Origin: an uncultured Rickettsiales bacterium
Lineage (GTDB): Bacteria > Pseudomonadota > Alphaproteobacteria > Rickettsiales > SXRF01
NCBI GenBank assembly: GCA_964575095.1
Contig: CAZNPA010000002.1
Coordinates: forward strand, 101,204-165,203
DNA: 64,000 nt
Direction: 5' to 3'
Shown piece by piece: positions 41,907-45,949 of the stretch (within the stretch, counting starts at the first letter, position 1; every line of letters starts with the position of its first letter). Below the pieces are notes generated by a model, which saw nothing but the letters and a program-made list of their open reading frames with translations, ran no database searches and was not told the origin of the DNA. The position numbers and the translations under genes were made by a program.

Positions 41907-43394
41907 ATGAATAAACTCGCCGATATTTTAGAGGCGCTGGGGTGTGACTTTCCGGCGTGGGAAGGCGCGGGCGTGAGCGTGACGGCGCCGGTAAGCGGCG
42001 ACGTGATCGCCACGTTATGTGAAGATTCACCGCAAAACATCGATAAAAAAATCGCCTCCGCCTCCGCCGCGCAGAAAACCTTCGCAAATTTGAAACGCAG
42101 CGAGCGCGTGAAATTGCTGGAAGCTATTGCGAGCGCCATCAAGGAAAACCGCGAGGCCATCGCCCAGTGTCTTTCGCTCGAAAGCGGCAAGACGATGAAA
42201 GAAGCGCTGGTCGAAGCCGATGGCTCGGTCAATACGCTCCTCAATACGATCAAAGACACGACGCTTGCCGATTTGGGCAACATGGAGCGCACCAAGGAGC
42301 GCCCGCCGGTGGGCACTGTCGGCCTCATCACCTCGTTTAACTTCCCGATGGCGGTGGCCTATTGGACCATCGCGCCGGCGATGCTGGCCGGCAATGCCGT
42401 GATCTGGAAACCGTCGGAAAAAACGCCGCTGACCGCGCTCGCCTGCAAAGCCGTGTTCGATAAAGCCGCCGGCGCGCACAAAGATTTATTGCAGGTGGTG
42501 ATCGGTGGCCGCGACGTTGGACAAACGCTGGTCGCCCATGCCAGCGTCGGCATGATAAGCGCCACCGGCAGTGTCGGCATGGGAAAAGCGATCAAGGCGA
42601 CGCTCGCCAAAAAATCCGGCAATATCGCACCGCCGATTTTGGAACTGGGCGGCAATAACGGCATCATCATTTCCGAAAAATCCACGCCGGAGCATATACA
42701 ATTCGCGGTGAACGCGATCATGGGATCGTTCCTCGGCACCACCGGCCAGCGCTGCACCAACACGCGCCGCCTGATCGTGCAGGAATCGGTGTATGAGAAG
42801 GTGGCCGCACTATTTAAAACCGCCATCGAAACGTTCTTGGCATCCGCCGTCAAAAACGGCGCGATGGATGCGGATAACGCCTACGGCTATAGCGCGTTGA
42901 TCGACCAAGATGCCTTCGAGCGTTTTGAGAAAGCCAAGTTGCAGGCAGTAGAAGAGGGCGGAAAAATACTATTGGGAAATCGCCTGAACATCGCCGGCGG
43001 CTATACCGTCGAACCGGCATTGGCGCTCTTGCCATCGCAAACCAAAATCATGCACGAGGAAACCTTCGCGCCGATTTTATTTATCGCGCCTTATAAGCAT
43101 TTCGGCGACGCCGTGGCCGCGCTCAACGCGCCCGCCAACGCCGGGTTGGTCGGCGGCATCTATACGCAAAACCAGAAAGAAGCCGATCAGTTTGCGGCCG
43201 CTTGCGAATCCGGCCATTGCCTCATCAACCCGCCCAAAGGCACCGGCACACCGGCGCACGGCATGGGCTTCGGCGGCAACAAAGATTCCGGCTGCGGCGA
43301 AATCCTCAACGCCGCCGACCCGCTGGCCGCATTCACGCGCCACGATACGTTTAGGCGCATTGCGTCGAATAAAGACGTAGTGATGTCAGAATGA
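41907..43394 (+). CDS. Aldehyde dehydrogenase, ALDH7-like but divergent
   Basis: GLITSFNFPMAV, WKPSEKTP, SATGS, LELGGNN, GTTGQRC, EETFAPIL. Start ATG 41907, with TTGTGC-N17-TATGGC-N6-ATG suggesting a leaderless transcript. Confidence 0.9.
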   Translation: MNKLADILEALGCDFPAWEGAGVSVTAPVSGDVIATLCEDSPQNIDKKIASASAAQKTFANLKRSERVKLLEAIASAIKENREAIAQCLSLESGKTMKEALVEADGSVNTLLNTIKDTTLADLGNMERTKERPPVGTVGLITSFNFPMAVAYWTIAPAMLAGNAVIWKPSEKTPLTALACKAVFDKAAGAHKDLLQVVIGGRDVGQTLVAHASVGMISATGSVGMGKAIKATLAKKSGNIAPPILELGGNNGIIISEKSTPEHIQFAVNAIMGSFLGTTGQRCTNTRRLIVQESVYEKVAALFKTAIETFLASAVKNGAMDADNAYGYSALIDQDAFERFEKAKLQAVEEGGKILLGNRLNIAGGYTVEPALALLPSQTKIMHEETFAPILFIAPYKHFGDAVAALNAPANAGLVGGIYTQNQKEADQFAAACESGHCLINPPKGTGTPAHGMGFGGNKDSGCGEILNAADPLAAFTRHDTFRRIASNKDVVMSE

Positions 43395-44606
43395 GATTTT
43401 CCACTCCGATACGTTGCACGGATAGCAGAATTTAGTCGTGGCCAATTTGTCCGCAGCTACCGGCCATGGGCCGACGGCGGGGTCTTTGTCGTAGAGCGCC
43501 GCAGACTTGCTTAGGAAAATACCGGAGAAATCAAACGGCGCTTTGAGCAGCGCGCCCGATGGCCGAGCTGCTGCCACGATCTGACCTTTTCTGATCGGTT
43601 CCATTTCTTCGTATTGGTGGTCGATGATCTTCCCATCGACGGCTTTGGCCATATAGATTTTATCGTGCGGCTGTAATGTTCCTTCAACCATCAGGTCGGC
43701 ATAGCTGATTTTTGGTTTGACGGCGTAGTTTTGAAAGATGCCGTTTTCTTTATCGTACAGCGGCGGTATTTTAGTGTAGCCGAGCGTATGGAGAAGCGAC
43801 AAGATGAACGACGCGGCGATGTACGGGGCATCCGGCGCTTCGTGCGTGCCGGCCTCGATGCCGGTCTGGCTCTCGATATTGGGCAGCGCCGAAAGCGTGG
43901 TTTTGAGCGTGCGTACGGCAACGGCGGCCGAGGCGTGCGCCGAAATCGCATCGGCAAGACCCGTCAGTACGGCGCGTATCGGCGAATGTTTCAGATGTGT
44001 TTCGTGCTTGTAATCAGTGATGCAGACCATGTTGCCGCGCGCCGTGTGCAAATCGGCGATGCCGCAGATATTTTGTCCAAGCAAATAAAGCTCTTGCGCG
44101 CGCCTGATGTTGGGGGCGGACGGGTCGCGGTCCATGAAATCGACCGGGATGCGGTTCATGTCCGGCAGCAGATGGCCGTTCTTATCCAGCCCGCAGCGGT
44201 AGCAATCGCGCGTTTCCTGCCGCGCCTGCGGCGCGTGCGACCACGCTTCGAAATATTGCGACGCCGCCAAAGGATTTCCGATAACGCCGATGACATCGCG
44301 CGAAAGGGCGCCCGCCTGCGATAGCGCCATCGCCATCACAATTCCCGCTAATCCCGCCGGTTCGTTGCCGTGTAATTGTGCGACAATGGCGAATGGGGAC
44401 TTTCCGGGGGTATTGCCGGGAATCATGATGGCGGCGGGGATGGTTTCGCCGCCCTGCGATATCTGGCTTTTGCCAATCGCGGCGGAGATTTTTCTCAAAT
44501 CGGCAAGCGTCAGCGTTTTATCGAAGAAGCGGCGGTGGAATTCGCCGGGTTTGGCGAAATCCTGGTTGAAAATATCCAATAAGAGGTGTCGGATAGTATC
44601 TTGCAT
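43386..44606 (-). CDS. Succinylglutamate desuccinylase/aspartoacylase (M14, AstE/AspA-like) protein
   Basis: LHGNEPAG, GNPLA, R....DMNR, ADLHT, IEAG Zn-hydrolase motifs. Confidence 0.8.
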   Translation of the reverse strand: MQDTIRHLLLDIFNQDFAKPGEFHRRFFDKTLTLADLRKISAAIGKSQISQGGETIPAAIMIPGNTPGKSPFAIVAQLHGNEPAGLAGIVMAMALSQAGALSRDVIGVIGNPLAASQYFEAWSHAPQARQETRDCYRCGLDKNGHLLPDMNRIPVDFMDRDPSAPNIRRAQELYLLGQNICGIADLHTARGNMVCITDYKHETHLKHSPIRAVLTGLADAISAHASAAVAVRTLKTTLSALPNIESQTGIEAGTHEAPDAPYIAASFILSLLHTLGYTKIPPLYDKENGIFQNYAVKPKISYADLMVEGTLQPHDKIYMAKAVDGKIIDHQYEEMEPIRKGQIVAAARPSGALLKAPFDFSGIFLSKSAALYDKDPAVGPWPVAADKLATTKFCYPCNVSEWKISF

Positions 44607-44614
44607 AGGGATGT

Positions 44615-45949
44615 ATGGTAACCGATAGAATAAAAGAAGTCATCTTCGTTGGATTGCCTGGGCCGACGCATAATTACGGCGGGTTATCGGCAGATAACGT
44701 TGCCTCGAGCACTAACCGCGGCCGCACGTCGAACCCGCGGGAGGCGGCGCTGCAGGCGCTGGCGCTGGTGCGGCTCCTCAATTCTCTGGGCATCGAGACC
44801 GCCCTCTTGCCGCCGCAGCTCCGGCCCAACCTGAAGCTGCTTCGCAGCAAATTTTCCGGTCATTCCGAAGACCTCATCGCCCGCGCTGCTAAAGACGACC
44901 CGGAGCTTTTGGAAAAAGCTTGTTCCTCTTCGGCGATGTGGACGGCCAATGCGGCGACGGTGACCGCGGCGGCGGATGCCGGCGACGGCAAGCTCCACCT
45001 GACGGTGGCTAATCTATACACCAACCTGCACCGCCGCATCGAGGCCGAGGACACGCACCGCGTGCTGACCGCCATCTTCAGGGACGTGCCGAATGCCGTC
45101 GTGCACGCGCCGCTTTCTTCCGATTTGAAAGACGAGGGCGCCGCCAACCACATGCGGCTTTGCTCGAATCATCATGAAAAAGGCCTCAACGTATTTGTCT
45201 ACGGCACCGACGGCAGTGTTGGTGATCCGCCGACGGCGCGGCAGACGCTTGCCGCCTCGCGGGAAATCTGCAAGCAGCATCGGGTGCCGCCGTCGCAGGC
45301 GCTGTTTTTAAAACAACATCCGGATTTAATCCGTCACGGCGTGTTTCATAACGACGTCATCGCCGTCGCCAACGAATCGGTGCTGCTCGTGCATGAAAAA
45401 GCCTATGCCGGCAGCATCGGCGATATCGGCCGCATCAAGAATGCCTACGAGGCGCTGCATCACGGCCACGCGCAATGTATCGTTATCAAAACCGCGTCGC
45501 TTAGTGTCGAGGAAGCGGTGCGCACGTATTTCTTCAACAGCCAAATCGTGACGACGGCAAACGGCATGGCCATCATCGCGCCGATGGAAGTGAAGGAACT
45601 TTACGGCGGCAAGGCGGCAAAACTGATGCAGCAGATGTGCGACGATGCGAGCAACCCGATCAACGTCGTGCATTACGCCGATCTGCGCCAGAGCATGCAA
45701 AACGGCGGTGGCCCGGCCTGTTTGCGTTTGCGCGTGCCAATGGGCGAGGTGCAAATCGCCGCCATGAGCGAGCATGTCAATGTGCTTGCCGACGAGCCGC
45801 TGCTTGCTGCCATGAAAAGAATTATAGAGTCCCGCTATCCAGCATCGGTCCACCCAGAGGATTTGGCGAACCCGGCGTTGTATCATTCGTGCCGGCAGGC
45901 GCTGGCGGAGATGGCAACGTTGATGCGGCTACCGCTTTTGGCGCCGTAG
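44615..45949 (+). CDS. astB: N-succinylarginine dihydrolase
   Basis: GLPGPTHNYGGLS, SNPREAALQ, SAMWTANAATV, DEGAANH.RL, GVFHNDVIAV, YFFNSQ, SMQNGGGPACLRLRV. Confidence 0.93.
   Translation: MVTDRIKEVIFVGLPGPTHNYGGLSADNVASSTNRGRTSNPREAALQALALVRLLNSLGIETALLPPQLRPNLKLLRSKFSGHSEDLIARAAKDDPELLEKACSSSAMWTANAATVTAAADAGDGKLHLTVANLYTNLHRRIEAEDTHRVLTAIFRDVPNAVVHAPLSSDLKDEGAANHMRLCSNHHEKGLNVFVYGTDGSVGDPPTARQTLAASREICKQHRVPPSQALFLKQHPDLIRHGVFHNDVIAVANESVLLVHEKAYAGSIGDIGRIKNAYEALHHGHAQCIVIKTASLSVEEAVRTYFFNSQIVTTANGMAIIAPMEVKELYGGKAAKLMQQMCDDASNPINVVHYADLRQSMQNGGGPACLRLRVPMGEVQIAAMSEHVNVLADEPLLAAMKRIIESRYPASVHPEDLANPALYHSCRQALAEMATLMRLPLLAP

Follow-up and report, generated by a model that had tools for sequence, protein, structure and literature searches.

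The three adjacent genes at 41.9-45.9 kb of a 64-kb stretch of DNA from an uncultured Rickettsiales bacterium probably form one evolutionary and functional unit, which contributes steps 2, 4 and 5 to a split, hybrid version of the arginine succinyltransferase (AST) pathway. The whole stretch analysed (the window, G000:C2:101204-165203) belongs to genome G000, which comprises 1.80 Mb in 10 contigs, is 100% complete and has a GC content of ~56%. The AST pathway is encoded by astCADBE in E. coli and by aruCFGDBE in Pseudomonas aeruginosa. The trio of the window is composed as follows:

41907-43394, plus strand: ALDH, an ALDH7/Pcd-like aldehyde dehydrogenase of 495 amino acids (aa) counted from the ATG, with a match to PF00171
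43386-44606, minus strand: X, a protein of 406 aa with AstE/AspA fold, recognised by its predicted structure and invariant residues, with no Pfam or NCBIfam match
44615-45949, plus strand: AstB', a protein of 444 aa of the N-succinylarginine dihydrolase family, with matches to PF04996 and NF009789

In the proposed scheme, AstA, whose gene lies beside astC on contig C3, would form N2-succinylarginine (step 1) and AstB' would convert it to N2-succinylornithine (step 2). AstC would then yield N-succinylglutamate semialdehyde (step 3), which the ALDH7/Pcd-like ALDH would oxidize to N-succinylglutamate in AstD's place (step 4). X, a divergent AstE/AspA-fold zinc hydrolase, would take AstE's place and release succinate and glutamate (step 5). 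The ancestral operon would have read astC-astA-astD-astB-pdxH, and its astD-astB part would have been displaced by the module.

A preliminary description of the window had read the region as an AstB, a long AstE-like hydrolase and an ALDH with the motifs FNFPMAV, LELGGNN and GTTGQRC. All three open reading frames (ORFs) are present at the coordinates given there. The ATG at 41907 is the ALDH start in public gene calls, and the longest ORF begins at the GTG at 41874. The stop ends of the ALDH and X genes overlap convergently by 9 bp (43386-43394). X and astB' are divergent with 8 bp between their start codons (44604-44617), so that each promoter and ribosome-binding site must sit within the other gene. 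A sigma-70 promoter scan of 41600-46200 found no site. The tight packing is kept in relatives, and in one of them (L010) the starts of X and astB' overlap by 2 bp.

The window contains no AstA, AstC or AstD. The preliminary description regarded all three as lacking, which for AstA and AstC holds for the window only, as both are encoded together on contig C3 (C3:222168-224463), followed by pdxH and queD. The single AstA of G000 (432 bits) reaches the cut-off of the equivalog TIGR03244 (391.8 versus 391 bits) and its gene adjoins that of an AstC/ArgD-type transaminase. With AstA and AstC present, the suggested salvage of N-acyl-arginine from outside, or the use of another acyl donor, is not needed for G000. 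Canonical AstD, on the other hand, is lacking as described: the complete genome has no match above the cut-off, and its only ALDHs are PutA, the ALDH of the trio and an SSADH-like enzyme. The AstE_AspA_cat model has no match in G000 either. A second AstB was searched for and none was found, which leaves AstB' as the sole AstB.

The distribution of these genes was surveyed in 24 genomes of the family of G000 and, within the same order, in 16 from other families. X is present in 18 of the 24 family genomes. The six without X (G001, G005, G010, G012, G014 and G023) are exactly those with a match to the AstD model between astA and astB on one contig. Five of these matches are above the cut-off, and the sixth (G010) is a partial gene cut at the contig end. 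In G005, for example, the locus reads decarboxylase-DS-transporter-astC-astA-astD-astB-pdxH-queD. Besides G000, 13 of 15 further X-bearing genomes that were fetched show astC-astA-pdxH-queD; exactly astD-astB is gone from the astC-astA-astD-astB-pdxH locus in these 14 genomes. The loci of genus g12 (G011 and G024) contain astC-astA and no recognised pdxH or queD. In a tree of AstA the two gene states cluster and two changes are needed, with a single change still compatible.

Conservation of the trio extends over more than 15 genera, and the trio and canonical astD exclude each other. The order, with ALDH and X convergent and X and AstB' divergent, recurs in almost every X-bearing genome, among them the metagenome-assembled genomes (MAGs) GCA_033762715.1 and GCA_033763775.1. 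The ALDH gene is unlinked in G011, G024 and G022, where an orthologue (53-59% identity) is still found elsewhere in the genome. In two genomes (G004 and G016) additional genes of ~1.2-2.2 kb lie between ALDH and X (L029 2065-4245; L035 3309-4546). This pattern supports two earlier suggestions, namely that an ALDH7/Pcd-like enzyme replaces AstD and that the long AstE-like hydrolase is part of the unit. The preliminary description had also held that the idea of a variant pathway would fall if canonical astA, astC and astD were encoded elsewhere and the trio did not stay together. The genes astA and astC are indeed elsewhere, whereas astD is not, and the trio is conserved.

Protein X has no Pfam or NCBIfam match at E<=0.001, and its score with AstE_AspA_cat (PF24827; 12.7 bits, E=0.095) does not reach the cut-off of 25. 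What supports the label 'AstE-like' is therefore the HGNE motif together with the fold. The sequence profile of X has marginal matches only among PDB chains (MpaA with E 0.15 and 3lwu with E 0.68); thus, the fold is needed to place the protein. The 212 homologues, all of them from alphaproteobacterial or 'Rickettsiales' MAGs, bear the name 'hypothetical' throughout. The family is small: a search of 1.84 billion representatives yields only ~30 clusters at E<1e-30.

The AlphaFold (AF2) model of X, calculated from 34 homologues, has a pLDDT of 93.1 and a pTM of 0.92. In a Foldseek search with this model the first 44 matches are all structures of the AstE/AspA family. VIA-align superimposes both domains on members of this family with Z-scores of 17-20.5 (252-297 residues aligned across residues 1-406). 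The highest score is that of DoeB (6twm, 20.5), followed by AstE of Vibrio and Chromobacterium (18.5-19.3), aspartoacylase (~17.5) and E. coli AstE (17.3). M14 carboxypeptidases, in comparison, align with the first domain only (Z ~13). Furthermore, hhalign matches the profile of X to that of 31 short AstE/AspA-like proteins with a probability of 99.9% (E 1e-35).

Residues His79, Glu82, His187 and Glu251 of X are invariant in the 34 homologues and align with the invariant His, Glu, His and Glu of the short AstE/AspA-like proteins. Judged by this H-x-x-E...H motif, His79, Glu82 and His187 are the predicted zinc ligands and Glu251 is the predicted catalytic glutamate. Arg133, Arg137, Arg152, Arg169 and Arg190 are likewise invariant. 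Fold and residues together make X a plausible active enzyme, and the model places it in a small, uncharacterised subfamily of AstE/AspA zinc deacylases that lacks Pfam coverage. The short AstE/AspA-like proteins nearest to X are paired paralogues encoded near a Peptidase_S51 gene, without AST genes, and offer no functional hint. X is proposed to be an N-succinylglutamate desuccinylase, and thereby an analogue of AstE; the hydrolysis reaction is suggested by the genomic context and by the fusion proteins discussed below.

A distant variant of X with 485-521 aa and 27-28% identity to X was also observed (L027 5446-7008; L070 5132-6697; L069 5565-7022). An ArgJ-family gene is found two genes away in two of the genomes; it is recognised by a Pfam match in L027 and, as a 410-aa ORF, by position only in L070. 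In G074 the variant directly follows a decarboxylase/DS pair. Among the genomes with the variant, which include G066 and G074, the AstB search covered G030 and found none there.

The ALDH matches PF00171 over its full length (340 bits). The best NCBIfam model is that of L-piperidine-6-carboxylate (P6C) dehydrogenase (pip_6_carb_DH, NF050084), with 309 bits versus a cut-off of 730, which is not reached. The score with the AstD equivalog TIGR03240 (193.6 bits versus 579.3) also stays below its cut-off. Among PDB sequences, 6dbb, 6rtr (Pcd) and ALDH7A1 are closest, and the identity to the canonical AstD of a relative is 27%. The motifs FNFPMAV, LELGGNN and GTTGQRC are all present, and the catalytic residues Asn145, Glu246 and Cys283 (numbering of the 495-aa protein) are invariant in 30 orthologues. 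GQRC had been listed as an ALDH7-type motif, but it is not specific, since the canonical AstD of a relative contains GQRCTCARR. The arginine in front of the catalytic cysteine is thus common to the ALDH and canonical AstD and is counted as support for carboxylate binding. A predicted complex of ALDH and X from their alignments scored 0.00 versus a mark of 0.32, which says nothing either way on binding. The ALDH is proposed to be an N-succinylglutamate-5-semialdehyde dehydrogenase that stands in for AstD as a non-orthologous enzyme, its substrate being suggested by the AST gene inventory.

AstB' passes the cut-offs of PF04996 (474 bits, cut-off 27) and NF009789 (473.2 bits, cut-off 452) and can be aligned with E. 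coli AstB (1ynf) over its entire length. Glu174, His245 and Cys369, which we take to be the Glu-His-Cys catalytic triad of the guanidino-modifying fold of AstB, lie in the motifs DEGAANH, FHNDVIA and GGGPACLRLRV. These motifs are identical in the alignment with 1ynf, and the three residues are kept in the X-linked as well as the operon-type clade of AstB. Both types have 93 conserved positions in common and only five clade-fixed differences, which include Asp27 in the N-terminal substrate-loop motif. With the operon-type AstB proteins of its family, AstB' shares 41-46% identity. The PF04996 scores of the X-linked proteins are 420-496 bits where the gene is whole, whereas those of the operon-type proteins are 542-599 bits in five of six genomes and 411 bits in G012.

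In the AstB tree the X-linked AstB' proteins form one clade (support 100/99). This clade joins the X-linked AstB of G038, a genome of another family (99/97), apart from nine operon-type AstB proteins. AstB' thus travelled with the module and is not a relocated resident gene. We infer that AstB' acts on N2-succinylarginine, because the X-bearing family genomes with a completeness of at least 90% all keep astC-astA, none of them has another AstB, and G000 has no gene for the FeeM-like acyltransferase described in the following.

X and the ALDH are fused to each other in two other lineages (P0141, 1027 aa; P0143, 1022 aa). The ALDH part of the fusions is 33-40% identical to the ALDH of G000 over the full length. 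Upstream of each fusion, an AstC-like aminotransferase is fused to a FeeM-like acyltransferase (772 and 857 aa). The two contigs are metagenomic and AT-rich, with 30% and 41% GC (L047 2145-7806; L048 4393-10069), and no AstB is encoded in the stretch examined around the fusion genes. G038 contains a related, self-contained cluster (L026, G038:C2:38000-54000, 5172-11562) in which the genes for ALDH (forward), X (reverse), a FeeM-like protein (reverse), AstB (forward) and an AstC-like protein (reverse) follow one another. The FeeM-like protein of G038 has 295 aa and no Pfam match; it is homologous to the FeeM-like domain of the fusions with E 5e-13. AstA was not found in the G038 genome, which is 100% complete. 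Accordingly, a transferase, a transaminase, a dehydrogenase and a deacylase recur together, with or without AstB.

Several observations weigh against the assignment of the trio to AST steps 2, 4 and 5. The substrates of the ALDH and X are deduced from gene inventory, context and fold and not from enzymology. X is transcribed opposite to the ALDH and AstB', and the trio is therefore not one operon. The unlinked SSADH-like ALDH on contig C4 could in principle perform the AstD step. Additionally, X and AstE_AspA_cat are both missing from the six relatives that possess a canonical astCADB operon. The desuccinylase step can thus be absent or done by an unrecognised enzyme, and this makes it less compelling that X closes the only gap in the pathway. 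AstB' remains below the cut-off of the AstB equivalog TIGR03241 (414.9 versus 538.3). Finally, the partner of the module in G038 and at the fusion loci is a FeeM-like acyltransferase and not AstA, so that the native acyl group may not be succinyl.

The linkage to FeeM-like genes at these three loci and the low equivalog score of AstB' also agree with a reading in which the module acts on another N-acyl group, or on another guanidino or diamino acid, and in which the use of AstA in this family is secondary or partial. Examples would be N-acyl-arginine or N-acyl-ornithine provided by a FeeM-type acyltransferase or by external uptake. The five clade-fixed differences of AstB', with Asp27 among them, point in the same direction, as does the nearness of the ALDH to P6C and aminoadipate-semialdehyde dehydrogenases. 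However, a tblastn search of G000 found no FeeM-like homologue, and AstB' keeps the 93 positions that are conserved in operon-type AstB. Moreover, the product of AstA would be without an outlet in the more complete family genomes unless AstB' takes it. We regard this reading as unlikely.

A biosynthetic role of X has to be weighed as well. No Peptidase_M20 gene was found in G000, which encodes DapD (416 bits, cut-off 375), DapF and ArgJ and has no Ddh and no DapL above the cut-off. In G004 and G013 the single M20 gene, ArgE-type by NCBIfam, is located between folE and a gene for a 140-aa protein (L073 4785-5978; L074 4198-5340). The same two flanks abut in G000 (C3:37182-37190); thus, precisely the M20 gene was cleanly lost. 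Family genomes without M20 all carry X, and the six X-less genomes all keep the M20 gene. X could accordingly be mainly the missing ArgE/DapE-type deacylase, i.e. N-succinyl-LL-diaminopimelate desuccinylase, with the proximity of astB' and the ALDH gene reflecting shared regulation. On the other hand, 11 X-bearing genomes still contain the M20 gene, the linkage of X is with AstB' rather than with dap genes, and the X::ALDH fusions point to the product of the ALDH as the substrate of X. As the counts are small and the genomes related, a mainly biosynthetic X appears rather improbable. The proposed role in the AST pathway is compatible with this activity if X is bifunctional. X may then also serve as a desuccinylase of the diaminopimelate (DAP) pathway, which we treat as a lead only in view of the few and related genomes.

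The alternating strands and the lack of a detectable shared promoter would suit a chance neighbourhood, in which the ALDH belongs to lysine or some other catabolism, X is peptidase-like and without a known role, and astB has been relocated, but conservation across genera, mutual exclusion with astD, the X::ALDH fusions and the separate clade of X-linked AstB strongly disfavour this and make it highly improbable.

A wider picture is conceivable and is offered tentatively. X and the ALDH might be the core of an undescribed catabolic module for N-acyl-ornithine or N-acyl-arginine, which has its own FeeM-type acyltransferase, occurs as giant fusions in some lineages and has hybridised with the classical AST pathway in this family. 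X might in addition be a broad N-succinyl-amino-acid desuccinylase that replaces an ArgE/DapE-type enzyme, and thereby a non-M20 analogue of DapE.

Automatic annotation names X 'hypothetical' and the ALDH generically, and the AST pathway hence looks broken in these genomes. With the proposed assignments, each of the two missing steps has a specific candidate. The locus is also a clean case of one pathway module displacing part of another. Should X also carry out the DapE reaction, this desuccinylase, an enzyme investigated as a target for antibiotics, would have a second structural solution, and the lack of any M20 enzyme in several small-genome alphaproteobacteria would be explained.

In the surroundings of the trio, a tRNA-Lys(CTT) gene is located immediately upstream of the ALDH (41689-41764). 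Two MAGs (L009 and L010) show synteny for the flank flgE-DUF2671-usg-(tRNA)-ALDH, and the position of the module is therefore old within the family. Downstream of the trio, the minus strand encodes a DevABC/MacAB-type exporter with a NodT outer-membrane factor. The gene of this NodT-family factor (45822-47321, minus strand) is convergent with astB' and overlaps its 3' end by 128 bp (45822-45949).

Two further observations concern the astC-astA loci. Beside astC-astA of G000 lie genes for a pyridoxal phosphate (PLP) decarboxylase (LysA/ArgDC-like) and a 1,9-bis(guanidino)-5-aza-nonane synthase equivalog (593 bits versus a cut-off of 500) at 11450-13844 of L006 (G000:C3:214000-232000). The decarboxylase/synthase pair, an arginine/agmatine-derived polyamine pair beside AST genes, is kept in relatives. 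In some canonical operons (G034, G036, G023 and probably G032) a gene for an M20 'hydrolase' lies between astC and astA (L024 9544-10761; L043 3891-5105; L046 612-1862). In G034 it matches NF005602 with 529 bits versus a cut-off of 357. It is possible that this enzyme represents a third, M20-type solution for the AstE step.

A literature search for a described AST variant without AstE or without AstD found nothing relevant. The five chemical steps of the classical pathway all have an assignable enzyme in G000, and AstA, AstC and AstB are recognisable members of their families. Unlike the classical arrangement, the genes are distributed over two loci, and the middle gene of the trio lies on the opposite strand. 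AstD is replaced by an ALDH7/Pcd-like enzyme and AstE by the 406-aa protein X, which the AstE models of Pfam and NCBIfam miss, and the AstB belongs to a separate clade.

X was compared with E. coli AstE (1yw6), Vibrio AstE (2bco/2g9d), DoeB/EutE (6twm), human aspartoacylase (2o4h) and CphZ (8eip). It resembles them in its two-domain fold, and the HxxE...H motif and the catalytic Glu align. In contrast to these proteins, with which it has only 12-19% identity, X is ~80-100 aa longer and falls below every curated cut-off. Insertions are seen in the C-terminal domain as well as near residues 125-147 and 216-232, and Arg133 and Arg137 are extra invariant residues. The ALDH resembles the ALDH7/Pcd enzymes (6rtr; ALDH7A1, 4x0t; NF050084), which are its best-scoring family, in its full-length alignment and in the motifs FNFP, ELGGNN and GQRC. 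It differs from them in its score, far below the cut-off of that model, and in its neighbours, which belong to arginine rather than lysine catabolism. AstB' is a full-length homologue of E. coli AstB (1ynf) with Glu, His and Cys in register, and it deviates from canonical AstB in its score below the equivalog cut-off and in its identity of 41-46% to the operon-type proteins of the family. Taken together, the system of G000 is likely to be a new, hybrid variant of the known AST pathway that makes use of an uncharacterised AstE/AspA subfamily.

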